From: an uncultured Pseudomonadales bacterium
GTDB taxonomy: Bacteria > Pseudomonadota > Gammaproteobacteria > Pseudomonadales > Azotimanducaceae
NCBI GenBank assembly: GCA_964481245.1
Contig: CAYZUV010000001.1
Coordinates: forward strand, 1 to 54,357
Length of the DNA: 54,357 bases
Direction: 5' to 3'
Below are positions 25,290-51,832 of this stretch, one piece after another (positions within the stretch are counted from its first letter, which is position 1; each line of letters starts with the position of its first letter). The notes under the pieces were generated by a model that saw only the letters and a list, made by a program, of their open reading frames with translations, was not told where the DNA came from and did no database searches. Made by a program: the position numbers and the translations under genes.

Positions 25290-25497
25290 ATCGCGCCTAT
25301 TGCTTGTGATGTTGGTGCTGGGTTTCGTCAGTGCCTGTCAGACCGTCGCACCCTGGGAGCGGGAAATTCTTGCGAAAGATGAAATGGCCTGGACCGAGGA
25401 CCCACTGGCTCAGGCGTTGGATCAGCAAGTCTACTTCAGTAAAGAGGGCGCGAGCGGCGGGCTAGGGGCAGCAGGGGGCGGGTGTGGCTGTAACTAA
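25273..25497 (+). CDS. DUF4266-type small lipoprotein
   Basis: Lipobox 'FVSAC', conserved 'WERE.L....M' region, Gly-rich tail ending 'GGGCGCN'. It overlaps the tlpA-like gene by 17 nt. Confidence 0.8.
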   Translation: MSFQSKSRLLLVMLVLGFVSACQTVAPWEREILAKDEMAWTEDPLAQALDQQVYFSKEGASGGLGAAGGGCGCN

Positions 25498-25507
25498 ACG
25501 TAATCAG

Positions 25508-32027: not shown

Positions 32028-32471
32028 GGGTGCAAGAATGTAAGGATTGGCTAGGAGGTCTCTGATCCGGCCTCGGTTGCGTTGACAGCACTCGCACGTA
32101 TTGCAGACGGTCCGCAGCAAGGGTCAGCCCCGACTGCAACTACGGGTAGAGTGCCCACGTGACCCTTTAGCGAGTCGAGGGTTGATTGGGGACTCGTAGT
32201 CCGACGGAGTGAGCAGTTAGGTTGAACGAGGTGCTATTCCAGCCGAACTTCTCACCTAACATCGAGGTCCAGACGCCTCGCGGTGACTCTCCAAGAGCCG
32301 AAGCGTTGCACGGGGTCGCTCTGGCACTGAGGTTTGGAACGGCTCCACTCGGAACGAATCCCCGCCAGATCCGCGCAGTGTGGTAGGAGGGTTTGGAAGC
32401 ACGCCAGCCATTGAATTTGAACGAGGTATGAGGTGTGTGGTCTTTTTTCTTTGGTTCGGGAGCCACGTCCG

Positions 32472-34094: not shown

Positions 34095-34265
34095 GCCAGT
34101 GCGCAGACGCTTTGGATGAATCAAAGATACGCGGACACAATGTCGAGCGTCACAAAAGCCATGGGTGACCATCGCAAAAGACTGATTTCTATTGCAGCGA
34201 TTGACCTACGAGCGGCGCGCACTCGGTGAATGAGATAACAGTGGATCAAAAGGAGAGAGAACCTC

Positions 34266-35486
34266 ATGCGGACAAGGCAAGCGATCATCATCATGGGATT
34301 GGGCTTGTTCTCCGGGCTAGCGCAAAGTGCGGCCCCTGATTTTCAAGACTTTCTAACGAGAGCGTGCGCCAACGCTGTGCCAGGCACGCCGTTCTTTGAA
34401 CGCTGCAATATTGATTCGGTAGACGGTGACTTATCTGGAGACAGTGAGGATTCGCTGAATCCCACGCAACCGCTTTCAGCGGGTGCTTCGGCGCTTTCTG
34501 AGACCCGGGCCCGGATCAAGGCCCTACAGGCGAAAATGAAGAATGATTCTGAGGATTCTTCAGGGGGCGTCGTCGAAACTTTTGGCATCAAAGGCCTGAG
34601 CATGCTCCTCAACATCGAAACGGGTCAACAGGATCGGGAAATCACCGGTAATGAGCGCGGCTTCGAGACGGATAGCCTACGCATTATGGTCGGGGGGGAT
34701 TATCGGCTTCGAGATAACCTGTTGGTGGGGGCCATTTTTGGGATCAATCGGTCGGATACCGATTTTCTCGCTGATTTGCCTGGACGCAATTTCGTACCTG
34801 GTCCGACGGAAGGCGCCATTGATCGCGACACCTATTCGTTGAACCTCTTCGTAACAAGCATGGTGGGCCAAAGCGGTTATGCAGATGCCATCTTCAGCTA
34901 TGCCTGGACGCAATCGGAATTTTCCCGCATCGGGGTGTTTCAAGAATCAACCCGAACGCTGCCCACGCAAGCGGTGGTGACTCGCAGCGACATCGATGGT
35001 AGCCAGTGGTCCTTGAGTGGCGGATTGTCTTGGGATCTGTCCGTTGGCGGGATTCAAGTTCAACCCTTTGCTCGTGCGACCTATCAAAGCAGTCAGTCAG
35101 ACCCTTACGGTGAAGCGGGCGGCATTGGATTCGCCATGCGCTTCGACACCGCGGATTTCAGCGAGTCGATTCTGAGCGGTGGGCTTCGAATCTCTAAGAA
35201 TTTCAATGCAGATTGGGGTATTTTTTCGCCACAACTCGGTATTGAGTACAATTTCAAGGGCGGCGATGACCGGTTCAGCGCCAATACCAGCTTTCTTGAA
35301 GACCCGCAGCAAACGCGATTTCTGGTGACGGGCGACATCTTGGATGACGCATACGGGCGCGTCTTTGGGTCTGTTTCCCTGGGCTTGCCCAACGGGCTTT
35401 CGGCCTTTATCAGCATTGAAGATTATTTCAGCCAGGCCTTTGTCGATGATTCGCGAATCACCGCAGGGCTCCGCAAAGAGTTTTAG
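34266..35486 (+). CDS. autotransporter beta-barrel protein with a very short passenger
   Basis: Signal peptide, passenger of about 100 aa, then a typical autotransporter beta-domain ('RIMVGGDYRL...', terminal 'GLRKEF'). Confidence 0.75.
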   Translation: MRTRQAIIIMGLGLFSGLAQSAAPDFQDFLTRACANAVPGTPFFERCNIDSVDGDLSGDSEDSLNPTQPLSAGASALSETRARIKALQAKMKNDSEDSSGGVVETFGIKGLSMLLNIETGQQDREITGNERGFETDSLRIMVGGDYRLRDNLLVGAIFGINRSDTDFLADLPGRNFVPGPTEGAIDRDTYSLNLFVTSMVGQSGYADAIFSYAWTQSEFSRIGVFQESTRTLPTQAVVTRSDIDGSQWSLSGGLSWDLSVGGIQVQPFARATYQSSQSDPYGEAGGIGFAMRFDTADFSESILSGGLRISKNFNADWGIFSPQLGIEYNFKGGDDRFSANTSFLEDPQQTRFLVTGDILDDAYGRVFGSVSLGLPNGLSAFISIEDYFSQAFVDDSRITAGLRKEF

Positions 35487-37685: not shown

Positions 37686-38243
37686 ATGAAATTCATTGCG
37701 TGGTTTGGCCTGTTTTTAGTCTTTGTTGTGATTGGGTTTACTTTGCGTGAGCAGAGAGATGACAGGTGGATTGCTGAAGGGCAAGATCAAGGTGATGCGG
37801 GGGCGTTGGGGTACGAAAGTAAAGATAAAGAAACCATGAGCAGCGTGATCCCGTTTCCAATAGAGAGCGCTATTGTTCGAGACGCGGCATCTCTCAGTTC
37901 ATTCAAGCCCGGCCAATTCTTCAGCTTGGCTAAGGAAGGAGAAGGGGACAGCGCTGGGCGTTTTCAGATTCGTGTGACCGAGTCTGAAGAGAAAATTGAC
38001 GTGATGAAGCTTAGGGGGGTGGTCGAAGGAGGAGGACAAGTTGTCATGACTTTGAGCCCGAATCTAACGCAAATTTTCTTGACGACACCTTCGGGCGCTT
38101 GGCACTTTACTGGTGATGAATTCGGAGGGGAACTCATCCCCTCAAAATCCATTGGACTCGACAATGACATTCGTAAGCCGACACTGGGCGAGAGAAAGAC
38201 GAGTGATCCGAAGCCGCCGCCGTCGCCCGCCGATCGAGGCTAG
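37686..38243 (+). CDS. membrane-anchored hypothetical protein, first gene of the surface-protein block
   Basis: N-terminal helix 'FIAWFGLFLVFVVIGF' and no recognisable domain. It ends 13 nt before the protease gene. Confidence 0.5.
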   Translation: MKFIAWFGLFLVFVVIGFTLREQRDDRWIAEGQDQGDAGALGYESKDKETMSSVIPFPIESAIVRDAASLSSFKPGQFFSLAKEGEGDSAGRFQIRVTESEEKIDVMKLRGVVEGGGQVVMTLSPNLTQIFLTTPSGAWHFTGDEFGGELIPSKSIGLDNDIRKPTLGERKTSDPKPPPSPADRG

Positions 38244-38256
38244 AGAGATAAAATTC

Positions 38257-41200
38257 ATGATAGAACTTAAACGCATATTCTTGCGGTTGATTTTGGGGTT
38301 TTACCCAGTGCTTTTTGTGAGTGCGGCGTTTGGTGGGGCATCAGTCAAAATGGTCTGCCCATGTGAGTTCGAGCAGATTGATCAAACTGTGGCGAAGGTT
38401 GAACTCTCGCTTGGTTTTATAGACGCAGTTGAAGCTTCAGACGAACTGAGGCTTGAAGTCGTCCACTTGAAGACTAAAGACCTACTCTCGGGGAGTAGTT
38501 ACTACATTCTGGGTGAGGCCAACCTCGGCGCATTCGATTTCGGACCGGACCCGATCCCAATGAAAGCGCTCATCCCGCTTCGAGCCCAGGAATTAGGTGA
38601 AGGACAACTTGGACTGCTGCTCTGGTCTAATGACAGCGATGTACCTATTGACCAAGTCTTGCTGGGTTCGCAGTCGGTCGCGATCGATGCATCTTACGGC
38701 ATTTGGTCATTTGACAGCCCGAGTATCTTCTTTTCGTCTGGACTGGAATTCGAATTTGGATTAGCCGGCGCGGAACTCAGTATTGGCGATATCCGAAGTC
38801 CTGACCTTGCTGGTCAGGAGGAAACTTGGAATTTGCAAATCGTTGTTGCCGATCAGGAAGGCTCTTACTTTCCCAAAGCTGAATTCGAAGTGACGGTCAG
38901 CTTTGATGCAGATGGTAAGGCTAGCCTCCGTTCAACGATTGATCTCAGCCATGGCTTGGATAGTCATTTGTCTGATTACGCGAACTTCACGGAAGTAGAA
39001 TTGCTCATCTATAGAAATGGCGACTTTTATCTACGCTACTGGTTGGAATCGCTCGCAGGCCAATCGGGCCCGGAACTGGTACCGCTTATCAAAGCGATTG
39101 ACGCGATATCAGATTCAGATGGTGATGGTCTGACAGACTATGTTGAGTCTCTAGTGGGCAGTTCGCCTGAAGCAGTTGATTGGTTGAGCCCGGCTGAGAT
39201 TGAAGTTGCATTTACGTATGGTGCGACAGCCGCTGAAGCCTTTGGGGATGATTTGAACGCGAGATTGGCTCACGTGATTGACGTGGCTAACTTGGCGTTT
39301 GAAACCTCTGCAGTGCCAGCGCGTGTGGCCATGACGGATCTGATTGAACTTGGCGATGACTCGGGACTGACTGCGGCGGCGCTCATCCCACAGATGGAAG
39401 TTCGAGACGAATTGTTCGCGGATCTAGATGCAAGATTCACCCGAAAACCCGATTTGATCATTCATCTCGGGCTCATTGATGTCATCGATACGGGCGGTCT
39501 AGCCAACCTTCAGGGCGGATTGAACGATGGCATATTCGACGGAGCGACTTACGCTGCAAGAGGATCCAACGTAGGTGTCGTCGGACTTGATAATTCGGAC
39601 ACGACCCTTGTGCATGAGGTGGGTCATCTCATGGGGCTTGATCACTCTCGAGTCCAAGGCACAGCAGATGGTGCCTTTCCTTGGTCTTTGGGGCATGGCG
39701 TTGACGCAGCATTCGTTACGATCATGGCTTACGCGTCGGAATTTTCAGATGCGGCAGAAGTCGCCAATTTTTCAACGCCCACGCTGATCTGCGATGGCGC
39801 AGACGCGTTGTGTGGGGTGAATCGTGCGGATCTCATTCTTGGTGCGGATGCCGCCCGCTCTCTTGCAATTACTGCATTTCAAGTGGCTGCGACATCAAAC
39901 GGTTTCACGCCTGTTATTCAATTGATAGGTGGGCCGGAGGTCACGGTTTCAGATGCTGAGGCGATAGCCGAGCTGGTCTTTACCATTTCAGATGCTGAAG
40001 ATGGTGATTTAACTACGGCTGCTGAGCGGACACTCGCCGCCTCAGCGGAAGAAGGCTTTGATTACGTTCAGACCATTCGAGTCACCGATTCGGATGGTAA
40101 TTCCGTAGAGGCCGCGCGCCGCATCAAAGTCGATGGTAGCCTGGCCTCAGGTGGTGACACGGTTGGAGGCGCCAGCGACGAGGGGTCGACTGATGCGAGT
40201 GATAGCGGAGGTTCCTCCGACGCAGGGGATGATGACGGAGTTGGCTCCGGTGGGGGTACTGATGCTGGGGTTGGCTCGGATGATACCGACGGTGATGGCT
40301 TGCCAGATGATCGGGACCCAGAGCCTGACATCGACAATTCAGAACAGCTTGCCCACTACCTCTGGGTGAAGGATAGGATGACCTGGCTAGAGGCCAGAGA
40401 CTATGCCAAGGCTCAAGGTGGATACCTCGCGTCGATTAGCAGCCAGTTAGAAAACGATCTGATCTACGCGATCGTCAGCGAAGGGTTTGACGAGAACTCG
40501 TATCAAACGCTCGGATACGCTGACGATGGGGGTAGCGCAACCTATGTGTATATCGGCGCCTCTGACCGAGCCGAGGAGGGCACGTTTGTTTGGGAGAGCG
40601 GAGAAGCCTTCAGCTTTAAAAATTGGGGGAAGGCAGAACCTGACAATTACGACGGCAATCAAAATGTGGTCGGCTTGGCGCTCGAAAACTGGCCCTATCA
40701 AGCGAGTGACAGCGATGCCTTTGGCCTAACGAGTCAGTGGAATGATATTAGCGAGACAAACGAACTGACATTCGTTATTGAATTCGATGAGGCTCAAACG
40801 GGCGGCACTGACGGGGGCTCGGGCGGGGGTACGACGGATTCGGGTGAGACGGATGGCGGCTCAACTGACGATGGGGAGACCGACTCGGGCACAACCGATG
40901 GAGGAGGCACCAGCGGAGGGACGACTGATAGCGGCGGAAGCGACGGCGGTACGGACGGCGGAACCACAGATAACGGTTCCACGGATGGCGATACAACGGG
41001 TGGTGACTCGGGGTTCGAGAGCGAAGCAGGGATCCTAGATATTGATGGCGATGGCAAGCGAGCTGCGCTTTCGGACGGTCTACTCATTATTAGACACTTG
41101 TTTGGGTTTCAGGGCACTTCTCTCATCAGCGGTGCCGTAAGTCAGAGTGCCATGGTGACAGAAGCCGTCGATATCGCCGCGATTATTGAATCTCACAGAC

Positions 41201-43065
41201 AAGATTTCGACATCGATGAAGATGGAGAGACTAAGCCGCTGACCGATGGCTTACTGATTATTCGTCATTTGTTTGGCTTCGAGGGGGCATCACTTGTCGC
41301 CGGAGCCACGAGTGCAAATAGCGCACTGACCGCGGCAGAAATCGCTGCGAACTTAGAGGCATTGGAGTCTTACACGGATGACGGCTCAGGTGGCGGCACC
41401 ACAGACGATGGCGAAGTCGACGCGGGTGGCACAGACAATGGATCGGGAACCTCCGATGGGGGGACTTCGACGACGGTTGATGTACTACTCAAGGTCACTT
41501 ATGACCGAGTCAATCCGGTGACCGATTTGAGTAATGGTTATTACCAGGCGAAGCTCGATTATGATGCCATCGAGTCCCTACCAGGTCGCTTTTTGAGCGT
41601 CGAGGTCATCGACGCTGACACTGACCAAACGTTCGATGGTGATTGGATGACCAGTGCTGAAGGGTTGGCATCAGGCCAATTGCCGGTTGATCGTTCGTTC
41701 TATTTCAAGATTCGCGCGAAAAGCGAGGTGTCAGACGCACAAGCGAAATGGTCGGTCAGTGTTCACGATAACCAGGGCAGCATCAATGTCGCTTCTTATC
41801 CGCAGTACGTCGCGATCTCGGATACGTTTACGACCAGTGCCGACCGTTCGATCGAAGTCGCGATCAAGAGCGGCTGGACAGGCACAGGTTACACGGCGGA
41901 GCGGGCCGCGGCGCCCTTCGCCATCATCGACACCATAATTGATGCCATGGGGTATATGGCGCGCAATTCGAGCGGTTTGGAGTACCCACCGCTCGAAATT
42001 TATTGGAGCAAAGACAACACTATCGCAAAAATCGGCACATCGTTTTACTCGGGAGGGGTAATATACATCCTGGGTGGCGTCGATGAGGACACCGACGAAT
42101 ACGACGAGCACGTCATTGTTCACGAGTGGGGCCATTACCTCCAAGACCGACTGTCACGAGACGATAGTCCAGGTGGCCCCCATGGCTCAGGTGATATTCT
42201 GGATCCAAGAATCGCCTTCTCTGAAGGTTGGGCTAACGCGTTATCTGGAATCGTTTTGGGCGATTCTGATTACAAAGACACCAATGGTGCAGACCAAGCC
42301 GAAGGTTTCTTCTTGCCTATGGAAGAAGGATTCCCCTCTAGCGTGGTTGAAGTAACCGCTGGATGGTTTTCTGAGGACAGCGTTGCAGAGATCGTTCTCG
42401 ATCTTTTTGACGGGAACAATGATGCGGAAGACGCGGACACAGTCTCGTTGTCGATAGCTGAGATGACTAGCGCGTTGGTTGATAAGGTGCCTGATACACC
42501 CGTAGCAACCACGATATTTAGTCTCGTGACGCCGCTTATCTCAGCGAACCTGGATCAAGAAACTGCGATCAGGGCGCTCCTGAAAAACCATAGCATCGCC
42601 CTGGAAGCAGGTGAGATAGACGTCTACGGGAGTCACGAACTGGTTGTTAGTGGTGGCGTTACCGACAACGCGCTGCCCATTTTTGCTCCTATAACTGTTG
42701 ACGGCGAGGCAGTTCGAGTCTGTCAGGACAACACACATACACCAGAGGACTACGTTGCCTCAGAACCCGATGCCAACAAGTTAGGCAACCGAACCTTGGG
42801 TAGGTTTTCAGTGACTGAATCTGGCAGCTTTGTTTTCTCAGCGACGTCGGGTGTTCAAGGCGGGTTGGGTCGTTCCGACGATCCTGATTTATTGGTCTAC
42901 AAACTGGGGCAACAAATTGCCTATAACAGTAATTCTGGATCAGTGAGCGAATCTTTAGATGATTTGACGGTTGGAGAGTACTGGTTCGTGCTCTATGACT
43001 ACGGATTCCTGGCTGGCAAGCAATCCTCTGCGCCTTGCCAGTTAGTGGAGATCAACAGAAAATGA
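38257..43065 (+). CDS. 1602-aa secreted multidomain protein: metzincin protease, C-type lectin, dockerin-like pair, second HExxH protease, PPC domain
   Basis: Signal peptide after the ATG at 38257. 'HEVGHLMGLDH' (39613-45) with Met-turn 'TIMAY'. CTLD 'WLEARDYAKAQGGYLASI...EPD...WNDIS'. Two 'DIDGDG....L.DGLLIIRHLFGF' segments. 'HEWGH' (42121-35) with downstream 'EGWAN'. C-terminal PPC-like 'GEYWFVLYDY'. Confidence 0.8.
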   Translation: MIELKRIFLRLILGFYPVLFVSAAFGGASVKMVCPCEFEQIDQTVAKVELSLGFIDAVEASDELRLEVVHLKTKDLLSGSSYYILGEANLGAFDFGPDPIPMKALIPLRAQELGEGQLGLLLWSNDSDVPIDQVLLGSQSVAIDASYGIWSFDSPSIFFSSGLEFEFGLAGAELSIGDIRSPDLAGQEETWNLQIVVADQEGSYFPKAEFEVTVSFDADGKASLRSTIDLSHGLDSHLSDYANFTEVELLIYRNGDFYLRYWLESLAGQSGPELVPLIKAIDAISDSDGDGLTDYVESLVGSSPEAVDWLSPAEIEVAFTYGATAAEAFGDDLNARLAHVIDVANLAFETSAVPARVAMTDLIELGDDSGLTAAALIPQMEVRDELFADLDARFTRKPDLIIHLGLIDVIDTGGLANLQGGLNDGIFDGATYAARGSNVGVVGLDNSDTTLVHEVGHLMGLDHSRVQGTADGAFPWSLGHGVDAAFVTIMAYASEFSDAAEVANFSTPTLICDGADALCGVNRADLILGADAARSLAITAFQVAATSNGFTPVIQLIGGPEVTVSDAEAIAELVFTISDAEDGDLTTAAERTLAASAEEGFDYVQTIRVTDSDGNSVEAARRIKVDGSLASGGDTVGGASDEGSTDASDSGGSSDAGDDDGVGSGGGTDAGVGSDDTDGDGLPDDRDPEPDIDNSEQLAHYLWVKDRMTWLEARDYAKAQGGYLASISSQLENDLIYAIVSEGFDENSYQTLGYADDGGSATYVYIGASDRAEEGTFVWESGEAFSFKNWGKAEPDNYDGNQNVVGLALENWPYQASDSDAFGLTSQWNDISETNELTFVIEFDEAQTGGTDGGSGGGTTDSGETDGGSTDDGETDSGTTDGGGTSGGTTDSGGSDGGTDGGTTDNGSTDGDTTGGDSGFESEAGILDIDGDGKRAALSDGLLIIRHLFGFQGTSLISGAVSQSAMVTEAVDIAAIIESHRQDFDIDEDGETKPLTDGLLIIRHLFGFEGASLVAGATSANSALTAAEIAANLEALESYTDDGSGGGTTDDGEVDAGGTDNGSGTSDGGTSTTVDVLLKVTYDRVNPVTDLSNGYYQAKLDYDAIESLPGRFLSVEVIDADTDQTFDGDWMTSAEGLASGQLPVDRSFYFKIRAKSEVSDAQAKWSVSVHDNQGSINVASYPQYVAISDTFTTSADRSIEVAIKSGWTGTGYTAERAAAPFAIIDTIIDAMGYMARNSSGLEYPPLEIYWSKDNTIAKIGTSFYSGGVIYILGGVDEDTDEYDEHVIVHEWGHYLQDRLSRDDSPGGPHGSGDILDPRIAFSEGWANALSGIVLGDSDYKDTNGADQAEGFFLPMEEGFPSSVVEVTAGWFSEDSVAEIVLDLFDGNNDAEDADTVSLSIAEMTSALVDKVPDTPVATTIFSLVTPLISANLDQETAIRALLKNHSIALEAGEIDVYGSHELVVSGGVTDNALPIFAPITVDGEAVRVCQDNTHTPEDYVASEPDANKLGNRTLGRFSVTESGSFVFSATSGVQGGLGRSDDPDLLVYKLGQQIAYNSNSGSVSESLDDLTVGEYWFVLYDYGFLAGKQSSAPCQLVEINRK
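40350..40790 (+). other. C-type lectin-like domain (cysteine-free, EPD / WND motifs)
   Basis: 'MTWLEARDYAKAQGGYLASISSQLENDLIY', 'YIGASDRAEEGTFVWESGEAFSFKNWGKAEPDN', 'WNDIS'. Confidence 0.65.
41035..41370 (+). other. dockerin-like duplicated Ca-loop/helix module (copy in the giant protease)
   Basis: 'LDIDGDGKRAALSDGLLIIRHLFGF' and 'FDIDEDGETKPLTDGLLIIRHLFGF'. It has the same architecture as 28665-28995. Confidence 0.55.
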
Positions 43066-43628
43066 GAATGACGAATTTAAAATGTATGCGCTGGTTAGCA
43101 CAAATGCTCATTCTTGGTGTCAGTCTGGGATTAGCGGGTTGCTTAGATGGAAATTTTTCAGCAGCCACACTTGAGCCAATCGCAGTGATTGAAACGGATT
43201 GGCCCAATATGGATCTCCGTAAAGGTAAAACACAAGGTCCGATACAGCTTCGATATAGGCTAGAGGAGTACGTCGGCAGAGATTTTAGAGTTGTGGTCTC
43301 CGCGCGCTCGTCACTTAAGGGTCTTGGCCCATGGCAGATGGAACTGACAGGAGCTAAGGTGCCGAAACTAATCGATTCGACGAGTCAATTGCAAAAAATT
43401 GCACAAGAGGGGGAACCCCCGTCGGTCTCTCGAACGTTTGCGTTCAAGGATTCAAGCGAAGAGTTTGAGTCAGTTTCGGTCAGAGTGCAGGTTGTAGTAG
43501 GTGATCAGTTGGCCAGTAGAACGCTCAATGTTCGACTTGATCCAAGTATTGATGAGATGCCCGTAAGACTTTGCACTCCGAGTGAAGCCTGTGGCCGCTT
43601 TTTTAAAGCCGAGACACGAGTTGAATGA
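43062..43628 (+). CDS. lipoprotein of unknown function, translationally coupled to the protease gene
   Basis: Lipobox 'LGLAGC'. Its ATG overlaps the protease TGA (ATGA at 43062-43065). Confidence 0.6.
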   Translation: MRMTNLKCMRWLAQMLILGVSLGLAGCLDGNFSAATLEPIAVIETDWPNMDLRKGKTQGPIQLRYRLEEYVGRDFRVVVSARSSLKGLGPWQMELTGAKVPKLIDSTSQLQKIAQEGEPPSVSRTFAFKDSSEEFESVSVRVQVVVGDQLASRTLNVRLDPSIDEMPVRLCTPSEACGRFFKAETRVE

Positions 43629-43744
43629 GATATCAGCAATGGTTTTGCGGCGAAGGAGCGTCTGGCCGCGGGACGGGTCTTGCAAGCTTGTAATTAGTGT
43701 TGAATGGTTTCAAAATCGTACTTGAAGCAGTGAAGGGTTCCCCA

Positions 43745-46700
43745 ATGTTTAAATCTTATCAATTCTTTAAAAATATGGTTTTGTCGTTGATTTTCGCAGC
43801 TGCTGCGAGCGGTGCGCTGGCAGCAGAACAAAAAATCACAACCGATCCAAGCAACACGGATGTCAAGGCAGGACAGACAGGTATAGCTTTGGCCCTAGGT
43901 TATTCCTCTACTGATAATGAACAAACGACTGGCCTGGGAGTGAAGATTTTCTTTGACTCGACGCAGGTAACATTTGTCAGCCTTGCTTCGAGCGCGGAGG
44001 TTGAAGACTTTATCATCGGAATCACCGAAACCCCCGATTCGATATCCACGGATGACAAAGATCTTGATGGCGATCCTAAAACTGATAAGTTCGCGAATAT
44101 CGCGGTCAGTAGCTTCAACGGGAAGTTTCCAGGTAGTGGTGACTGGCCGGAAAGTGGGCCTTTGCCTTTCGCCACGATCACCTTCGATTTGGCAACAACT
44201 GCGCAAGAAGACACTATTACTGCCATTAATTATGTCCTTGATGGAGCTGCTGGTTATGACACTGCGGCGGAATCCGCAACGATCACAATTAAGGGTGACG
44301 AAATTCCACCCGAGATCACAGCTTCAGCGACTTCGGTAACCATAGAAGCCGAAGGGGCTTACACACCACTGAGCTCTGAGCAGTTGACCGAATTTCTGGC
44401 AGGCATCTCGGCAAGCGATAATATTCAAGGTGATATAAGTTCCGATTTGGTCGCTACAATAGATGGGGATACAGCTGAACTGTTGCCCGTGGGTGACTCA
44501 ATTATTCAGTACGATGTTAAAGATTCCAGCGGGAATGCCGCGGAAAGTGTCCAGGTTACAGTTACAGTTGTGGATACAACTGGTCCTACAATACTTGGCG
44601 CAGTGGACGTTTCTTTCGAGGCAACGGGACCAAATGGCATTTCAAGCGAGGATCCGACTGTAACCGCGTTTGGGGACTCAGTGACTGCGCTTGACTTGGT
44701 CAGCGGTGAAGTAGAGGTGATCCCAACCGTTGGAGGGGAAGCACTCCCCGAGTACTTCCCTATAGGTACAACCACGGTCGAATTGAGTGCACAGGATGCA
44801 TCGGGTAACCCTACGACAGGGTCATTGGTTGTGACCGTAGTCGACACCACTGCACCGGCGATCGTCTCGGCTGCTGGATTGACACTGGAAGCCACGGGCC
44901 CAACGGGTTACACGGGAACGACCGATGAGGTGACCGCAGCAATTGAAGTCACTGACTTGGTTGATCCAGCCCCGGTGGTCACTTTGGCTGAAGGCGTAAG
45001 CACGCCGTTCCCTCTTGGAGTAACGTCAGTTGCCGTCACAGTGACAGATAGCGCTGGAAATGCGGCCCAGGGTACTGTTCCTGTAACCGTTGCAGATACA
45101 ACAGGTCCAGCGTTTGCTGGCGCCAACACCTTGATTTTGACTGTTGATGAAGAAGTGCCGGTTGCTAGCTCTGATGAACGTGTGGCGGCTTGGCTTGAAG
45201 GCATATCAGCGTCCGACCTGGTCGATGGCGAAGTTGAATTTACTTACTCCGCGCTGCCTGCAGAGTTCCAAGTAGGTGAAACGACGGTCACGTTCACGGC
45301 TTCGGATGCGGCCGGCAACACCACAAAAGAGGAAGTCATTGTGCTTGTTGCGGTAGGGCCGAGCGTCAAGGTCGCGGCTGCGATTACGGTGGTTTCTGTA
45401 GATGGTGAAGCGGTGCCTGCATCGCAGCCGTTGATCGCTGCATTCATCGAAGCAGCAACGGCGACTGATTTCTCAGGCAATACGCTCGATGTAACGAATG
45501 ATGCTCCAGACTCCTTCGCCGTCGGCGAAGAAACGGTGGTGACCTTTACCGCGGTTGATGCCGATGAGCGCCAGGGCCAGAACACCTCGACGGTAACCAT
45601 TGTTGCCGCGAGTGGTGATAAGGATACCGACGGTGATGGCATCGACGACCTGTATGAGGTGGAAGAGGGACTTGATCCCAACGATGCTGAGGACGGGGAA
45701 GGAGATGCAGATGGCGATGGCCGCAGCAATCTGGATGAGTACTTGGAAGGTACCGATCCTAATGCTGATGATGTGAAGCCTGTCGTCACAGCACCAGCAG
45801 ACGTGTCGGCTGACTCGACGGGTCTTGTGACCAAGGTCGCACTCGGGGATGCAACCGCGGAGGATGTATTGGACGGCGAGTTGACGGCAACGCCTGATAA
45901 CCCAGGGCCTTATGCACCAGGTACATATACGATCACGTGGTCAGCAACCGACGCAGCGGGCAATGTCGGTATAGATACCCAGACAGTGACGGTACGTCCT
46001 CAGGTGACGACTGTGCCCAAGCTTCGAACGGCAGAGGGCAAGACTGTGATGCTGGACGTTGTCTTAAACGGTGCAGCGCCCGCCTATCCGGTGGAGATTC
46101 CGGTGACGTTGGGCGGTACCGCAACGGTTGATGAAGACTACACGGTCGATGCTGAGGTGGTCACGATCGCTGAGGGTCGTAAAGGTATGCTGACACTGAC
46201 CATCTTGAATGATGAACTTGAAGGCGAGGGAGCCGAGACCATTGAAGTGATGCTGGTTGACCCTGCAGCCAACGCGGTGCTTGGATCTGCCAAGATGTCG
46301 ACGATCACCATTATTGAAGAAGCAGCACCGCCGGTCTTGAAGATCACGGTGACGCAGGGTGATTCGAAAGGCAAGCGTGTTTCTGCTGGCGGTGGTGCCG
46401 TGAGTGCCATGGTGAGCATTGTTGACCCGAACGGTGAGCACACGATCGATTGGTCTGGATCCAATGAAGGCCTTGAGTCTTCCACCGGCACCGATACGGA
46501 TACGTTCACGTTTGATCCCTCCGCGCTTGAAGCTGGCTCTTATGATCTGATCGCGGTAGTGACCGATAGTGGTATTGCTGATACCACCTTCACCATTGGC
46601 GTTACGGTTCAAGTGACGGCAGAAGAGGTCGAGGCGGACTCTGATGGTGATGGTATTCCTGACAGCAAGGATACGAGTGACCAAGGCAACGTGATCGCGT

Positions 46701-47356
46701 TGAACGCTGATGCCGGAACTGCGGCTGCTCAGGCGGACGAGGGCGTCTCGATCGTGATCGGAGACGTTGCGAATAGCTCAGGCAATGCTGGGATCGGTAT
46801 TACCGAGGAACAACTCGCAACGACACCTGGTGGTGATGATGCGGATTATGATTACCCTGCAGGCATCTTGGACTTCGAGGTTCAAGATCTTGCTGAGCCA
46901 GGTACTTCGTTCAGAATCGTGATCCCGCTTGCTGCTGCCGTCCCAGAGGGTGGTGTGCTCCGCAAATTCACGGAAGCCAACGGTTGGAATGACTTCGTGG
47001 TTGACGACAACAACGCAGTTGCCAGTGCGCTCGGCGAAGACGGCGCCTGTCCGGATCTTGGTTCCGAGCTTTACGTCGCGGGCTTGACAGCAGGAGACAC
47101 GTGTATGCAATTGACGTTGCAGGACGGTGGTCCGAACGATGCTGACGGTGAAGTGAATGGTTCTTACAAAGATCCAAGTGGTATTGCTGAAGCCACGCCT
47201 GTGCAAGTGGTTGAAATCAATGCGGACGGTTACAAGAGTCGTAAGAAAGTAGGTGGTGGTTGTTCGGTGGTCGAAGGCTCAGCCGATACAGGCCTCCTCG
47301 TCTTGTTACTACTTGGTTTGGCAGGGCTGCTGCGACGTCGATTCGTCGCAGCTTAA
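43745..47356 (+). CDS. 1203-aa surface protein: cohesin-like N-domain, HYR/Ig repeats, TSP3 repeats, Calx-beta, C-terminal Cys-containing sorting signal
   Basis: Signal peptide 'LIFAAAASGALAA'. Repeated 'V(V/A)DTT(G/A)P' HYR starts. 'DKDTDGDGIDD...DADGDGRSNLDEY' TSP3. Calx-beta 'GGTATVDEDYT...LNDELEGEGAE'. Tail 'GGGCSVVEGSADTGLLVLLLLGLAGLLRRRFVAA'. Confidence 0.8.
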   Translation: MFKSYQFFKNMVLSLIFAAAASGALAAEQKITTDPSNTDVKAGQTGIALALGYSSTDNEQTTGLGVKIFFDSTQVTFVSLASSAEVEDFIIGITETPDSISTDDKDLDGDPKTDKFANIAVSSFNGKFPGSGDWPESGPLPFATITFDLATTAQEDTITAINYVLDGAAGYDTAAESATITIKGDEIPPEITASATSVTIEAEGAYTPLSSEQLTEFLAGISASDNIQGDISSDLVATIDGDTAELLPVGDSIIQYDVKDSSGNAAESVQVTVTVVDTTGPTILGAVDVSFEATGPNGISSEDPTVTAFGDSVTALDLVSGEVEVIPTVGGEALPEYFPIGTTTVELSAQDASGNPTTGSLVVTVVDTTAPAIVSAAGLTLEATGPTGYTGTTDEVTAAIEVTDLVDPAPVVTLAEGVSTPFPLGVTSVAVTVTDSAGNAAQGTVPVTVADTTGPAFAGANTLILTVDEEVPVASSDERVAAWLEGISASDLVDGEVEFTYSALPAEFQVGETTVTFTASDAAGNTTKEEVIVLVAVGPSVKVAAAITVVSVDGEAVPASQPLIAAFIEAATATDFSGNTLDVTNDAPDSFAVGEETVVTFTAVDADERQGQNTSTVTIVAASGDKDTDGDGIDDLYEVEEGLDPNDAEDGEGDADGDGRSNLDEYLEGTDPNADDVKPVVTAPADVSADSTGLVTKVALGDATAEDVLDGELTATPDNPGPYAPGTYTITWSATDAAGNVGIDTQTVTVRPQVTTVPKLRTAEGKTVMLDVVLNGAAPAYPVEIPVTLGGTATVDEDYTVDAEVVTIAEGRKGMLTLTILNDELEGEGAETIEVMLVDPAANAVLGSAKMSTITIIEEAAPPVLKITVTQGDSKGKRVSAGGGAVSAMVSIVDPNGEHTIDWSGSNEGLESSTGTDTDTFTFDPSALEAGSYDLIAVVTDSGIADTTFTIGVTVQVTAEEVEADSDGDGIPDSKDTSDQGNVIALNADAGTAAAQADEGVSIVIGDVANSSGNAGIGITEEQLATTPGGDDADYDYPAGILDFEVQDLAEPGTSFRIVIPLAAAVPEGGVLRKFTEANGWNDFVVDDNNAVASALGEDGACPDLGSELYVAGLTAGDTCMQLTLQDGGPNDADGEVNGSYKDPSGIAEATPVQVVEINADGYKSRKKVGGGCSVVEGSADTGLLVLLLLGLAGLLRRRFVAA
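43823..44300 (+). other. cohesin-like beta-sandwich candidate at the adhesin N-terminus
   Basis: About 155 aa whose strand pattern recalls cohesins: 'VKAGQTGIALALGY...GLGVKIFFDSTQVTFVSL...FANIAVSSF...PFATITFDL...TITAINY...ATITIKG'. Resemblance by eye only. Confidence 0.3.
47252..47353 (+). other. C-terminal protein-sorting signal (GGGC motif, TM helix, Arg cluster)
   Basis: The tripartite 'GGGCS' / 'GLLVLLLLGLAGLL' / 'RRRF' lies at the extreme C-terminus, 16 nt upstream of a CPBP protease gene. Confidence 0.7.
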
Positions 47357-47372
47357 TTCCCTGGGGGTTGTC

Positions 47373-47837
47373 ATGGCGGGACGGCTTGCCGCAGCCATGT
47401 CACCTCAAGGTTTAGAAAAGAGCGCCCTCCTGGGCGCTTTTTGTTTTTATCTAGTCTTATTTTTTGGTTTTGATATTCAGCCTGACCTTCTGTGGTGGCT
47501 GAGGCAGCCCTTGAATGCGATGGTTCTGATCATTGTCTCGCCCGCATTAGAAGAGTGGATCTTCAGAGGTTGGTTGTTTGATCTGGTTCGGAATTGGAGC
47601 CAAACCCTTAAGCAGGAGCTTCTCAGTGAACGCCTCCTCTCTATCCAAAATGCCGTCACAACGAGTTGCTTCTGCGCACTCCACAGCGTGCTTCGTGACC
47701 CTCTCACGGGGCTGCTTGTCTTGGGCCCCTCACTGCTCCTTGGCTTCATGCGGGATCGTCAGGTCTCGTTACCTGTATTAATGATGATTCATGGAGTCTG
47801 GAATGCTGGTTGGTTCTTCTTTTACCCACCAGGTTAA
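47373..47837 (+). CDS. CPBP-family (CAAX-type) glutamic intramembrane protease, small form
   Basis: All three CPBP motifs are present: 'EEWIFR', 'FCALH', 'HGVWN'. About 4 TM helices, 154 aa. Confidence 0.8.
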   Translation: MAGRLAAAMSPQGLEKSALLGAFCFYLVLFFGFDIQPDLLWWLRQPLNAMVLIIVSPALEEWIFRGWLFDLVRNWSQTLKQELLSERLLSIQNAVTTSCFCALHSVLRDPLTGLLVLGPSLLLGFMRDRQVSLPVLMMIHGVWNAGWFFFYPPG

Positions 47838-48069
47838 TTTGGAGGAGATCTTGCCTCGGATTGACCCACTGATTTCAGAATCCAGCATAAACCTGGGCTG
47901 GGCACGCCCAAGATTGATCGGTGTTCGCTAAATCGAAGTTCAACGCGGCCATACTGAGACCCAGTAGGCCTGAGCGAAGCCGCGGGCTTTACACTCATCA
48001 GTGCCCATAGGCAATGCGAGTTTAATTTGTCACAATGAATCGTTTCAGGTCTCGTTTCAGGAGTGCGCT

Positions 48070-50271
48070 ATGACTCGGTTTTTCTCATCATCACTGCTCT
48101 TCAGTATCGTGTTGGGCAGTGGTGCGGCACTCGCCGCGATCTCGCCAGGACAGCAAGTTGCTCTCCAAGAAAGTCTTGAGGCGGGTGACGGTGCTGGCGT
48201 GACGCTGGCCACCAATCGCATTCTGTCTAGTGGGTTATCGGCTAACGATGTTGGAGCCCTTGAGCAAATCGCATCCTTCCTATCTGAGGCGGGCTATCGA
48301 GATGCAGCTGGCGGTATTCTGGTCAGAGCCGCCGAATTGGTTGACGCACCCAATACAGAAAGCGACCGAGAAACATTGGTGCGTATCGCCGAGGCTTTGC
48401 AGGCGATCAATTTACGCTCGACAGCTCAAACTGTCGCGACCCGGGGTATTAAGGTTACGGGGAAATCACAAAGCGATCAGCTTAATGCGCAAGGTTATCA
48501 ATTACTGGGTGATCTAGCGTTTGAAAACGGTGACCTTGATGCCGCCTCTGAAGCTTATGCGAATGCTTCTGCCAGTCAAACCGCGAGCCTCCCCACGGAT
48601 TTGCTGGTAAGGCAAATTAAATTAGCCGCTAGTCAGGGAAATCGAGCTGAGATCCGTTCAGGTCTTGGTCGTCTTAATGCACGCCTAGTGGTGGAAGTGT
48701 CTACATCTCATTTGCTGGACGTGGCCGCCGCTTTGGTGAACTCCGGTGAGCGCGAGTTTCTTCCAGATGCGCTCTTGCTGATCGAGCGGGCAAGCGCCCA
48801 AGGCGACGCTGGAAATCTTGCCGAGCGGGCGGAGCTCGCACTACTCCGGAGTCAAATATCAGAGGGAATGGGTCAAACGACAGAGGGCCTCAAACAGGCG
48901 CGCGCGGCGCTTGCAGATCTTGGTGATAATGCTTCTCCTGGGCTTGCTTATCGCGTGTATTGGCAGATCGCGCGTCTTCAGAAAGCGTCTGGGGATTTGA
49001 CTGCTTCGATCAAAAATTACGAACGGGCGATAGCGAAGCTTGACGCAATTCGTGGCGTTCTATTGCAAGGCAGTACGCTTGTTTTCAGAGAGAGGGTACT
49101 GCCGGTCTATCAAGAATATTTGGATTTATTGCTTGCGGAGGCTGATCGGCCCAGTGCTAGAGAGGTTTCCTTAGCAAAGGTACAAGCAACGTTAGAAGCG
49201 CTTAGCGCGTCCGAAATTCTCGACTACTTTGATGACAACTGTGTCCTACCACAGAACACGATGAGCCTTACGGATGTTCCCAACGGTACGGCTGTCGTGT
49301 ACTCAGTCACAGTCTCCGAGAAGCCGGTTGTTTTGGTTCGTTCTTCTAGTGGGCTCTACCGATTCGCCACAGGCTCAACCGCATCTGATTTGGAGCGCAT
49401 GGCGCTTGCCTTCAGGGAAAGTATTACCAATCCCGGCACATCTGAGGCGGTGTATCTGAACCAGGCCCAGACGCTTTATCAAAGTCTGCTTGGTGAGGCG
49501 GGTCCTTTTCTTAAAGACGAGGGCATAAAACGCATCATCAGCGTGCCTTCAAGTTATCTTCGACTCATTCCTATGGCTGCACTGCATGACGGCGATTCTT
49601 ATCTCTTAAATCAGTACGAATGGTCGACCACGTTGGGGCTCGGTTTGACCGACGCGTCATCGTTTAAAGCATCGCGAACCAGCGCCTTTTTGGGCGGTGT
49701 TTCTGATGCCGTCCAAGGGTTTGAGGCATTACCCGGGGTCGAGACGGAATTGGCGGGCCTGCGAACCGCGTTGCAAAGTGAGCCGCTTCTCAACGAGCGT
49801 TTTTCAGTTGCAGACGTGACGCGACGGTTGGCCGAAGGGGAGTTCGGCATCGTTCACCTAGCGACCCACGGTTATTTCGATGGGGATCATGCGAATTCGT
49901 TCCTGCTTGCCCATGATGACAAGATCACCCTGGATCGACTCCAGAGCACTGTTGGAGCAAGACGGTTCTCTGGAGACGCCTTGGATTTATTGGTGTTAAG
50001 TGCATGTGAAACCGCCAAGGGCGATGAGCGCGCGGCACTGGGTCTCGCTGGTGTTTCGCTCAAAGCGGGTGCTCGAAGCACGCTGGCTTCGCTTTGGCCC
50101 ATTGCCGATGAGGCAACAGCAAAACTGATGAAAACCTTTTACGAGGGACTGCAAGCGGGAGAAACCAAAGCACGAGCGCTGCAGCTTGCGCAACAATCAC
50201 TCTTGTCTGATCCGGAATGGGCGCATCCGAATTATTGGAGCCCCTATCTGATGATTGGCAATGCGCAGTAA
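48070..50271 (+). CDS. exported TPR-like / CHAT-domain protease-fold protein
   Basis: Signal peptide 'LLFSIVLGSGAALAA', helical-repeat N-half, CHAT C-half with His 'VHLATHG' and Cys 'VLSACETA' and 'ASLWPIAD'. RBS AGGAG lies 6 nt before the ATG. Confidence 0.85.
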   Translation: MTRFFSSSLLFSIVLGSGAALAAISPGQQVALQESLEAGDGAGVTLATNRILSSGLSANDVGALEQIASFLSEAGYRDAAGGILVRAAELVDAPNTESDRETLVRIAEALQAINLRSTAQTVATRGIKVTGKSQSDQLNAQGYQLLGDLAFENGDLDAASEAYANASASQTASLPTDLLVRQIKLAASQGNRAEIRSGLGRLNARLVVEVSTSHLLDVAAALVNSGEREFLPDALLLIERASAQGDAGNLAERAELALLRSQISEGMGQTTEGLKQARAALADLGDNASPGLAYRVYWQIARLQKASGDLTASIKNYERAIAKLDAIRGVLLQGSTLVFRERVLPVYQEYLDLLLAEADRPSAREVSLAKVQATLEALSASEILDYFDDNCVLPQNTMSLTDVPNGTAVVYSVTVSEKPVVLVRSSSGLYRFATGSTASDLERMALAFRESITNPGTSEAVYLNQAQTLYQSLLGEAGPFLKDEGIKRIISVPSSYLRLIPMAALHDGDSYLLNQYEWSTTLGLGLTDASSFKASRTSAFLGGVSDAVQGFEALPGVETELAGLRTALQSEPLLNERFSVADVTRRLAEGEFGIVHLATHGYFDGDHANSFLLAHDDKITLDRLQSTVGARRFSGDALDLLVLSACETAKGDERAALGLAGVSLKAGARSTLASLWPIADEATAKLMKTFYEGLQAGETKARALQLAQQSLLSDPEWAHPNYWSPYLMIGNAQ

Positions 50272-50281
50272 GGGGATGATC

Positions 50282-51832
50282 ATGACGATATTTAAAACAT
50301 TATTGGTTCTCCTCCTCACGCTCATTGCGCACACGATCAAGGCTGACGCTATGGTGGATGGCGTGGTGCTAAAACGTGTGGAGTTCAGTGGTGCAACTGT
50401 TTTTTCGAATCGAGATTTACAGACCGCCCTCCCAGTGAATGAGGGCGATCGCGTCTACGCTGAAGATATATTGGCCATGGTCGATGCGATTACAGCGCTC
50501 TATCAAAATGCCGGTTATATCACCTCGGGTGCAACGCTAAGCAACCAAGATGTGAGCGATGGCATTATTCGAATCCAGGTGATTGAAGGGCAGTTGACGG
50601 ATATTTCCCTTAGCACCACAGGCAGGTTGAGTGATGCATTCGTCCGAGGCAAGGTGAAGGCCAGCACCTCCGGCCCCGTCAAGCTGGCGGATTTACAACG
50701 AGCCATCAGCCGCCTTGAAAGGGAAGACACCATTAGCCACGTGAAGGGTTCCTTAAAACCGGGCACCGAGCGTGGCCAATCTGTTTTAGATCTGGAAGTG
50801 GTCGAAGCTGATGCGTTTTCATTAACGATTGGCGGCAATAATTATCGCAGTCCCAGTGTGGGCGAAGGGCAGGCCGAAGTGGCGCTCGAGCACCTCAACC
50901 TGCTCGGTAGGGGAGATCGACTTAACGTGGGCTATCAAGACACCGATGGCGTGGATGCTTATTCGGTCCGTTATGACTTGCCGCTGCTTCGGCTGAATTC
51001 TCGGCTGGCGGTCTTCCACGCCAAAGGTGACACCCTGGTCGTTGAAGAGCCGTTTGACGAAATTGCGCTCGAGAGTGAGACCGACACCACGGGTTTCCAG
51101 TTAACAAGCGCCTGGAAAGATACCGGCACGCATCGCTTCTCGAGCATTATCGGCTATGAGCAAAAAGAGAGCATGACCACACTCCTAGGGATGCCATTTG
51201 ATTTCTCTCCCGGGTCTCGAGGGGGCGTTACGGAAGCCTCGGTTTGGAGCCTGGGCGTTGAATGGGCGAGGAGCGGCGATAACAGTGGTTTTGCGCTGCG
51301 ACTCACTGGCCGAATGGGCAGTGATGAAAATGATGCGCCCAATCCGCAGGGGGTTGATGGCGATTTCAGCGTGTTTCGTTTGCAGAGCCAATACGTGCAT
51401 CGCATAGACGAAGCTTGGCAACTGAATTTTGGTCTGAGTGTTCAGGAAACCGGTGACACCCTGCCAGCCTTCGAGCGAATCGCGCTCGGAGGGCACGATA
51501 CGGTCAGGGGCTACCGTGAGAACCAGCTGCTTAAAGACTCAGGCGTCCTGTTCAATGCGGGTATGACGCTCGCGCTTCTTCAACCCGACGCACCACGGTC
51601 CCTCGGGGTGAAAGGGCACCTCTTCTATGACTATGGCCGAGGCGAGAACAGCGAAGTATCACTGAATGTTGACACGAAAGGCGACATCAGCAGTGTCGGC
51701 GTGGGGATTACGGCGACGTATGCCGGACTGACATTCAGGCTGCAAAAGGCACATCGGCTGGGCGACAAGTCCACGCTGGGTGATACGTTTCAGGACAATG
51801 GTATTCATTTGGGGGTGAGCTATGAATTCTAA
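50282..51832 (+). CDS. ShlB/FhaC/HecB-family two-partner secretion transporter (TpsB)
   Basis: Signal peptide, POTRA 'LKRVEFSGATVFSNRDLQ', 16-strand barrel-like C-half 'RGYRENQL', terminal 'VSYEF'. Confidence 0.85.
   Translation: MTIFKTLLVLLLTLIAHTIKADAMVDGVVLKRVEFSGATVFSNRDLQTALPVNEGDRVYAEDILAMVDAITALYQNAGYITSGATLSNQDVSDGIIRIQVIEGQLTDISLSTTGRLSDAFVRGKVKASTSGPVKLADLQRAISRLEREDTISHVKGSLKPGTERGQSVLDLEVVEADAFSLTIGGNNYRSPSVGEGQAEVALEHLNLLGRGDRLNVGYQDTDGVDAYSVRYDLPLLRLNSRLAVFHAKGDTLVVEEPFDEIALESETDTTGFQLTSAWKDTGTHRFSSIIGYEQKESMTTLLGMPFDFSPGSRGGVTEASVWSLGVEWARSGDNSGFALRLTGRMGSDENDAPNPQGVDGDFSVFRLQSQYVHRIDEAWQLNFGLSVQETGDTLPAFERIALGGHDTVRGYRENQLLKDSGVLFNAGMTLALLQPDAPRSLGVKGHLFYDYGRGENSEVSLNVDTKGDISSVGVGITATYAGLTFRLQKAHRLGDKSTLGDTFQDNGIHLGVSYEF

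Follow-up and report, generated by a model that had tools for sequence, protein, structure and literature searches.

JDVT-CTERM/MrtJ is a protein-sorting system that was predicted in silico and has the adjacency of client and protease as its hallmark (Haft 2023, bioRxiv 10.1101/2023.06.07.544157). The myxosortase MrtX of Myxococcus was shown by experiment to cleave MYXO-CTERM tags and is required for surface localization (Guo, Haft and Wall 2025, PMC11980579). For Saccharophagus degradans, a marine gammaproteobacterium that encodes dockerin- and cohesin-like open reading frames (ORFs), a similar docking idea was raised as a conjecture (PMC2386152). The present study concerns a surface-protein locus in an uncultured Pseudomonadales bacterium (Azotimanducaceae; assembly GCA_964481245.1, contig CAYZUV010000001.1). 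The window, which is the whole stretch of DNA that was analyzed (positions 1-54,357), contains five ORFs at 37686-47837 that are all co-directional on the + strand in ORF calling, as an earlier note on this DNA had claimed. They encode a 185-amino-acid (aa) protein, a secreted metalloprotease, a lipoprotein, a fibrillar surface protein (the adhesin) and a CPBP-type protease. The N-terminal tip domain of the adhesin is predicted to adopt a cohesin fold, and a duplicated dockerin-like module is present both in the metalloprotease and in a separate secreted CxxCH protein, p438. The earlier note had interpreted these parts as a docking system in which the adhesin holds enzymes on the cell surface, an interpretation that is partly supported as a whole.

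The cohesin-fold tip domain of the adhesin (43817-44314, + strand) provides the firmest result of the analysis, although the earlier note had regarded the cohesin call as its weakest link. The AlphaFold2 (AF2) model of the tip, derived from an alignment of 44 family members, reached a pLDDT of 96.7 and a pTM of 0.89. A Foldseek search with this model against the PDB returned 94 matches at E<=1e-3 (best E 1.7e-7), and cohesins accounted for 49 of the top 50 with a probability of 1.00; the TM scores were 0.40-0.59 by query length and up to 0.69 by target. The matched cohesins belong to types I, II and III, some of them in dockerin complexes, and include non-cellulosomal cohesins of Archaeoglobus fulgidus and Clostridium perfringens. 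The lone outlier in the list, CLIPPER/DUF11 (9ifr), is a CnaA-like isopeptide stalk domain and was rejected. This modeling indicates that the adhesin N-terminal domain has a cohesin fold, as had been suspected from its sequence. The relationship is faint at the sequence level. A PDB sequence search with the tip and its family profile found no cohesin, the Pfam Cohesin model touches 6 of 44 tip relatives at E<=1 (best 1.2e-5), and in P0123 it scores 20.8 bits against a cut-off of 24.1, falling on the tip-equivalent domain.

The tip belongs to a family of 362 representatives in an exhaustive HMMER search, with up to nine tandem copies per protein. Residues Y29, G39, D79, D84 and T89 are invariant in the family. 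The tip also contains a conserved acidic loop, DDKDLDGDPKTDK (adhesin aa 104-117; nucleotides (nt) 44054-44095), which follows the family pattern DxxDxDGDxxTDK. To our knowledge, this loop is not a feature of canonical cohesins, and it may be a Ca site and a candidate for a conserved binding surface. Anchored, fused and free members of the cohesin family do not split cleanly into subfamilies by nearest neighbor, and a scan with the family hidden Markov model (HMM) identified no other cohesin-like domain encoded in the window. The family members P0175 and P0196 occur with canonical Pfam Dockerin_1, and P0179 is found in Desulfothermus naphthae, which is not a gammaproteobacterium; the cohesin family thus has a wider range than the family of the extended dockerin-like module described below.

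The dockerin-like module was identified by its core, DG[LIV]xx[LIV]R[HY][LIVM], which has exactly four in-frame occurrences in a six-frame regular-expression scan of the window, all within two ORFs. The protease contains two core sites (aa 940-948 and 997-1005; nt 41074-41100 and 41245-41271), and p438 contains the other two (aa 340-348 and 396-404; nt 28705-28731 and 28873-28899). The full module, D-x-D-x-DG...DGLLIIRHLFGF, is present in two copies in each protein. Each repeat consists of a DxDxDG loop, a LTDGLLIIRHLFGF helix and a helical hairpin, and the repeats recur every 57 aa in the protease and in p438 alike. The consensus, [FS]xDIDGDGxxxALTDGLLxIR[HY]LFGFxGxSLxxGAxxxxAxRxxxxxIxxYL, occurs twice with 16 invariant positions over a total of ~115 aa, for which AF2 predicts six helices at a pLDDT of 90.7. 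The module family HMM matches the protease at E 2e-45 and p438 at E 5e-43 and nothing else in the window. The duplication of the module in these two proteins, which the earlier note had pointed out, is thus far beyond chance.

The module is also widespread. The protein collection yielded 366 homologues. In GTDB representative genomes, a scan that was anchored on the module to collect related loci gave 214 confirmed sites. The genomes that bear it are almost all metagenome-assembled genomes (MAGs) of uncultured marine Gammaproteobacteria/Pseudomonadales (HTCC2089/Ca. Azotimanducaceae, SAR92 and K189A), and several of these MAGs hold at least 6-8 module loci each. The position of the module is bimodal, either at the extreme C-terminus or just past the signal peptide. 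The 59 module carriers span 37 Pfam families, including GH16, CBM60, S41, trypsin-like, M60-like, reprolysin and PSCyt3, and an S8 carrier is present in locus L003. The module aligns in register with the dockerin pattern DxNxDGxxxxxDxxLLKRYLLG at D1, D3, D5, G6, R, [HY], L and G. Its Ca loop is one residue longer, with the acidic ligand at loop position 13 rather than 12, and its repeats are more widely spaced than those of canonical dockerins, which lie ~33-36 aa apart. Among 44 module relatives, 14 touch Pfam Dockerin_1 at E<=1, and P0029 passes the cut-off (26.7 bits versus 22.9) with both repeats covered; one member of the module cluster is named 'dockerin type I domain-containing protein' at NCBI. 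The sequence data describe the module as a genuine, unannotated and widespread family that appears dockerin-like in design and placement.

Are the cohesin-fold domain and the dockerin-like module partners? Of 151 proteins that were found through the cohesin domain alone, 44 (29%) also carry the dockerin-like module, in cohesin-dockerin (CD), CCD and CDC architectures. Cohesin-to-dockerin gaps are 9 aa or shorter in 37 of 40 junctions, with a median of 2 aa, and most gaps in the opposite order measure 11-74 aa. Such tight junctions would define a rigid dyad that is reminiscent of X-Doc. Elsewhere in the cohesin family of the tip, a canonical Pfam Dockerin_1 domain (~40 bits) stands directly after the cohesin. 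Furthermore, cohesin proteins with a sorting tag (JDVT/MYXO-like, GlyGly-like or IPTL-CTERM) never carry the dockerin-like module, and the module itself resides in enzymes, in a division of labor. Because of these fusions, the equivalent position of the canonical dockerin and the division of labor, the sequences strongly support the view that the two families are evolutionary partners at the family level.

The linkage is also apparent in gene order. The arrangement of module-bearing protease, lipoprotein, cohesin-bearing adhesin and CPBP protease recurs in loci L001, L044, L050, L059 and L083-L090. In the genome of L003 and L009, which is more distant and whose adhesin is 47% identical, three module-bearing proteins flank the adhesin and CPBP genes. 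One is an S8 protease that contains a cohesin-dockerin dyad, another is a PBP/YHYH protein whose module is N-terminal, and the third is an M60-like peptidase whose module is C-terminal. The proteases that bear the module beside the adhesin and CPBP protein in diverged genomes are reprolysin-like, M4, S8 or M60-like, and the module and the linkage persist throughout.

The tight junctions raise a different possibility, namely that the modules interact mainly in cis or among cohesin-dockerin dyads, as a rigid X-Doc-like unit, head-to-tail polymers or a matrix; the adhesin tip would then capture these adaptors or polymers instead of the protease itself, and the protease module would plug into scaffolds encoded elsewhere that are soluble or have multiple cohesins. 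The short gaps in one orientation only are consistent with this possibility, as are the common CD, CCD and CDC architectures with as many as nine cohesin repeats in a protein. Small secreted proteins with nothing beyond a signal peptide, a cohesin and a dockerin-like module, such as P0158, likewise fit, and so does the S8 protease of L003, which adjoins the adhesin and bears its own dyad. However, the modules of the window protease and p438 are free-standing and have no cohesin in cis, the protease copy is located between long flexible linkers, and the window encodes no further cohesin-like domain. In addition, fused and free-standing modules share one common consensus. We thus regard predominant interaction in cis or among dyads as improbable for this locus.

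In our proposal, the locus is instead a cell-surface display device in which the anchored, cohesin-tipped adhesin docks module-bearing enzymes in trans. The chance that this is correct is about even, because the tip and the module do not co-diverge and the module lacks a structural match, as discussed below. According to this proposal, the adhesin (1203 aa; 43745-47356, + strand) would be exported, and the adjacent MrtJ-like CPBP protease would process its Cys/transmembrane/Arg tag, as suggested by family membership and by analogy with MYXO-CTERM and myxosortase. By the same analogy, the adhesin would be held on the outer surface by its C-terminus, so that its N-terminal cohesin-fold domain would be displayed at the far end of the HYR/Ig stalk of ~850 aa. 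The cargo would be secreted and would comprise the giant metalloprotease, probably the CxxCH protein p438 and others encoded elsewhere in the genome. We infer that the free-standing, linker-flanked module would then bind the cohesin-fold tip in trans in a Ca-dependent manner and tether the enzyme. The lipoprotein and the 185-aa membrane ORF may be accessory components.

The anchoring step is based on the C-terminal part of the adhesin and on its neighbor. The adhesin consists of a signal peptide, the cohesin-fold tip, a stalk of HYR, Big_13 and Ig-like repeats with TSP3-like Ca loops (44315-46840, + strand; Pfam HYR E 2.9e-20 in five stretches, and Big_13), a choice-of-anchor-U domain (46841-47188, + strand; NCBIfam NF041766, 42.4 bits versus a cut-off of 32) and a tripartite sorting tag of the JDVT-CTERM/MYXO-CTERM type (47243-47353, + strand). 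The tag comprises GGGC, a Leu-rich transmembrane helix and RRR in the tail sequence GGGCSVVEGSADTGLLVLLLLGLAGLLRRRFVAA. It passes both NF033191 JDVT-CTERM (28.7 bits versus 27) and TIGR03901 MYXO-CTERM (21.1 versus 20), which bears out the membrane-sorting signal that the earlier note had placed at this end. JDVT-CTERM tags feature a nearly invariant Asp-Pro approximately nine residues past the Cys (Haft 2023, bioRxiv 10.1101/2023.06.07.544157). The window adhesin has D-T at +8/+9 after the Cys, where its orthologues P0130 and P0140 have D-P. The CPBP/Rce1-like glutamic intramembrane protease (47373-47837, + strand; Pfam Rce1-like, 46.5 bits) begins 16 nt 3' of the adhesin and scores 70.9 bits against NF033192 MrtJ, just under the cut-off of 75. 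It adjoins the adhesin in every orthologous locus that is long enough (L001, L002, L003, L009, L050, L059, L088 and L089), and no second sorting-tagged protein was identified in the 54-kb window; JDVT-CTERM systems typically serve a single client in each genome. The tag scores and the Rce1-like, near-MrtJ neighbor together identify the adhesin and the CPBP protein as a predicted client/protease pair of the JDVT-CTERM/MrtJ type. A strong terminator-like hairpin with an 11-bp stem followed by a T-run is located at 47417-47442, shortly past the adhesin stop and inside the 5' end of the CPBP gene. By dampening read-through, it might control how much adhesin is made relative to the sorting enzyme.

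A series of observations weighs against the docking proposal, and the first group concerns the identity of the modules. The Pfam Cohesin model (PF00963) does not match the window tip at E<=10, and Pfam Dockerin_1 (PF00404) does not match either window module at the same threshold. Profiles of the full module and of the single repeat retrieved no dockerin from the PDB; the single-repeat profile touched just the DxDGxG loop of one dockerin at E ~2-3. A PDB match of the window modules to a phage CI repressor is spurious and falls on "LTDG". In hhalign, the module family was placed in the right register on the CelS and CelD dockerins, but only at P=0.011 (the CelS sequence was checked against 2MTE/1DAQ). 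The fold search gave no dockerin either: Foldseek with the module model against the PDB reached a best E of 1.6 and a TM of at most 0.26, although Foldseek is weak on short helical domains, and given this weakness it is conceivable that the modeled domain contains helices inserted around a dockerin core. Finally, the module is approximately twice the size of a dockerin, with six helices compared with the compact three-helix fold of ~60-70 aa.

Such results could mean that the module is a generic calcium repeat of the EF-hand/TSP3 type whose resemblance to the cohesin-dockerin system is coincidental. DxDxDG loops are common here in proteins that also contain TSP3 repeats, and the similarity to PDB dockerins shrinks to the loop. 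A generic repeat, however, would not account for a duplicated 57-aa unit whose 16 invariant positions extend well beyond the loop, for its confident AF2 folding as a single domain or for its fixed partnership with a cohesin-fold domain, and we consider this explanation very improbable. The likeness to dockerins that the earlier note had drawn from the duplicated loop and helix is partial: the register agrees, but the loop is longer and the repeats are more widely spaced, and the comparison fails with Dockerin_1, the PDB profiles and Foldseek. Given a dockerin-like loop and placement together with the failed tests and the double size, we treat the module as an analogue of dockerins that could at most be a strongly diverged, extended relative, and do not file it under PF00404.

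The second group of contrary observations concerns the pairing of a given tip with a given module. Much of the synteny described above reflects the shared ancestry of related genomes rather than independent events. The adhesin has one cohesin, yet related genomes encode many module-bearing proteins. Moreover, the cohesin tip appears from sequence comparison to be a cassette that is swapped between near-identical strains. In blastn, L090 and the window share 96.7% nt identity up to 43628, do not match over 43629-44282 and match again at 90% from 44283; the swapped stretch runs from the intergenic region through the signal peptide to the cohesin tip. The adhesin of L089 is 48.6% identical to that of the window in the tip and 87.8% identical in the remainder. 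A second tip replacement distinguishes L050 from L059, whose adhesins are 28% identical in the tip and 67% identical in the remainder. In the same pair, the protease module is 85% identical, compared with 68% for the adjacent catalytic domain. The adhesin tip and the neighboring protease module thus do not co-diverge, and the variable tip next to a conserved module shows no sign of co-evolution. The absence of co-divergence weakens a specific one-to-one pairing of tip and module. It is possible that binding needs few invariant cohesin residues and leaves the exposed rest of the tip free to vary, and it is also possible that the tip binds something else.

The latter possibility leads to an account in which the parts are independent. 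The JDVT-CTERM-sorted adhesin would bind an external ligand, such as a particle, a glycan or a cell, with its tip; the module would have its own target, for example a cell-envelope glycan, or a stabilizing role; and the genes would be neighbors in an island of surface proteins. Swapped variable tips are typical of ligand-binding or antigenic tips, and the cassette exchange between L090 and the window fits this account, as do the conservation of the module whatever the tip, its failure in the structural and profile tests for dockerins and the abundance of surface and secretion genes in the window (autotransporter, CHAT, TpsB/TpsA and caspase-like). However, independent parts leave unexplained why the module is fused without a linker in 29% of the cohesin-family proteins, why the corresponding position in further members of that family is taken by canonical dockerins and why module-bearing proteases of unrelated catalytic types recur next to adhesins that are only ~47% identical. 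We therefore judge independence of the parts to be rather unlikely, though it is an account to be taken seriously.

Beyond the docking proposal for this locus, we tentatively suggest that marine Pseudomonadales that are abundant and uncultured (HTCC2089/Ca. Azotimanducaceae, SAR92, K189A and relatives) may possess an unrecognized assembly system of the cohesin-dockerin type. Such a system would use a double-sized dockerin analogue on protease, glycanase and redox cargo, receptors that are displayed on JDVT-CTERM, GlyGly-CTERM-like or IPTL-CTERM tags or arranged in cohesin-dockerin dyads, and swappable tips. Whether exoenzymes are kept on the cell or released by marine heterotrophs is a central question for ocean carbon turnover, and a docking system in widespread uncultured gammaproteobacteria would, if real, give a molecular handle on exoenzyme retention. 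With it, the cohesin-dockerin principle would come to include proteases and the outer surface of Gram-negative cells; the system would be an aerobic, protease-rich, Gram-negative counterpart of the cellulosome that holds exoenzymes on the cell in the open ocean. In addition, it would give the JDVT-CTERM/MrtJ system a concrete client function and could offer protein engineers a new pair of orthogonal binding modules. Database names of the family members are almost all "hypothetical protein", and the definition of both families would improve the annotation of many proteins in marine MAGs.

The prospective cargo, the metalloprotease (1602 aa; 38257-43065, + strand), starts at an ATG, and an alternative GTG start at 38113 would give 1650 aa. 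It consists, in order, of a signal peptide, a metzincin domain, a C-type lectin domain, a linker, the dockerin-like module, a second linker and a second zincin-like domain. The metzincin catalytic domain (39199-39891, + strand) is reprolysin/Mep72-like (Reprolysin_4 E 2.4e-8 and Reprolysin_5 E 7.4e-8 at aa 315-506) and contains the motif HEVGHLMGLDH at 39613; NCBIfam Mep72 matches the protease with its N-terminal part only, at E 4e-32 and far below the equivalog cut-off. The C-type lectin domain (40375-40677, + strand; aa 707-807) scores 31.7 bits against a cut-off of 22.6 with Pfam Lectin_C. The module of two 57-aa repeats (41029-41376, + strand) is flanked by linkers of ~80 aa and ~35 aa that are rich in Gly, Thr, Asp and Ser. 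The C-terminal domain of ~530 aa (41479-43062, + strand) contains a second HExxH motif, HEWGH at 42121-42135, and is a putative second metallopeptidase. Family searches with it gave just faint M36-type matches around HEWGH and assigned no family, and a PDB sequence search gave no match.

Protease orthologues are present in L050, L059, L044 and L085, and the C-terminal domain is kept in L001, L044, L050, L059, L083-L085 and L087. The N-terminal catalytic unit differs among relatives: the window and L050 have a reprolysin-like unit, and L085 and L001 have an M4 thermolysin-like one. L044 encodes the two protease halves as separate genes, and a dockerin-like module is present in each. The split of the L001 protease into two genes is probably a frameshift artefact, because L085 has a single ORF of 2183 aa and the L001 adhesin is fragmented as well.

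The other genes of the locus are closely spaced around the protease. The 185-aa ORF (37686-38243, + strand) has an N-terminal hydrophobic/transmembrane helix and gave no match in family searches; phmmer detects distant homologues in L044 (E 2e-12) and L050 (E 4e-11), in both cases immediately 5' of the protease. The lipoprotein (188 aa; 43062-43628, + strand) has the lipobox LGLAGC (LAGC). Its start codon and the TGA stop of the protease share the sequence ATGA (43062-43065), an overlap through which it is predicted to be translationally coupled to the protease. A lipoprotein is also located between protease and adhesin in L001, L044, L059, L083-L087 and L090, and L050 has a lipobox ORF at this position (by inspection only). 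The adhesin has an alternative GTG start at 43697 that would give 1219 aa.

The second module carrier of the window, p438 (438 aa; 27688-29004, + strand), contains a CIVCH motif at aa 61, TSP3 repeats and a C-terminal dockerin-like module at 28660-29001. Directly upstream lie genes for a TlpA-like redoxin (24792-25289), a DUF4266 lipoprotein (25273-25497; E 2.7e-22), a DUF3570 protein (25484-26692) and ApbE (26689-27585). A DUF4266/DUF3570/TlpA neighborhood occurs beside JDVT-CTERM proteins in a few species (Haft 2023, bioRxiv 10.1101/2023.06.07.544157), and by analogy with this arrangement p438 may have a docking module where those proteins have a direct anchor. A homologue search with the CxxCH domain of p438, which asked whether the module replaces a JDVT-CTERM anchor, returned two near-identical fragments only. 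Surface and secreted proteins are abundant across the whole window. A caspase-like (Peptidase_C14) protein with Sel1 repeats and an autotransporter beta-domain protein are encoded upstream of the locus at 32433-35486. On the 3' side, 48001-54200 encodes a CHAT-domain/TPR protein, a ShlB/FhaC-type TpsB transporter and a TPS-domain exoprotein (two-partner secretion), and this region is syntenic in L001, L059 and L088.

The locus can be compared with three groups of known systems. Like JDVT-CTERM/MrtJ and MYXO-CTERM/MrtX, it combines a tripartite single-Cys/transmembrane/Arg tag with a CPBP/Rce1-like protease that adjoins its client, and the client is a large repetitive surface protein. It differs from JDVT-CTERM/MrtJ in the D-T in place of D-P in the tag and in a protease score (70.9 bits) that falls just short of the MrtJ cut-off (75). 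The description of that system mentions neither cohesin nor dockerin, nor a cohesin-tipped client flanked by module-bearing enzymes (Haft 2023, bioRxiv 10.1101/2023.06.07.544157).

The locus resembles the cellulosome, and particularly its anchoring scaffoldins OlpA/OlpC and ScaE, in that a cohesin-fold receptor forms the N-terminus of a protein with predicted C-terminal anchoring. Further shared features are a module of duplicated Ca loop and helix, placed terminally in varied secreted enzymes, and adaptor-like proteins with both modules, and the X-Doc dyads share a beta-sandwich domain fused right before a dockerin-type module. In contrast to the cellulosome, the host here is an aerobic marine gammaproteobacterium, and the proposed cargo consists of proteases, along with the CxxCH protein encoded elsewhere in the window, rather than cellulases. 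There is no multi-cohesin scaffoldin with a CBM here, and the adhesin has a single cohesin, although relatives do include multi-cohesin proteins and GH16/CBM60 carriers. The module, with its ~115 aa, six helices, 57-aa spacing and loop of one additional residue, matches no solved dockerin. The cohesin has an extra invariant acidic loop, and a myxosortase-type tag replaces SLH or sortase anchoring.

Non-cellulosomal cohesins, namely 2xdh of A. fulgidus and 2jh2 and 2w1n of C. perfringens toxin complexes, are among the Foldseek matches of the tip. A literature search found no paper that describes these two families or links such modules with the JDVT-CTERM system. Unlike the described non-cellulosomal modules, the families here are largely unrecognized by Pfam and NCBIfam and have their own architecture rules, sorting-tag anchors and a conserved protease linkage. 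Thus, non-cellulosomal cohesin- and dockerin-like modules and the JDVT-CTERM system were already known, and what appears to be new, as judged from the literature search, is the two families and their linkage.

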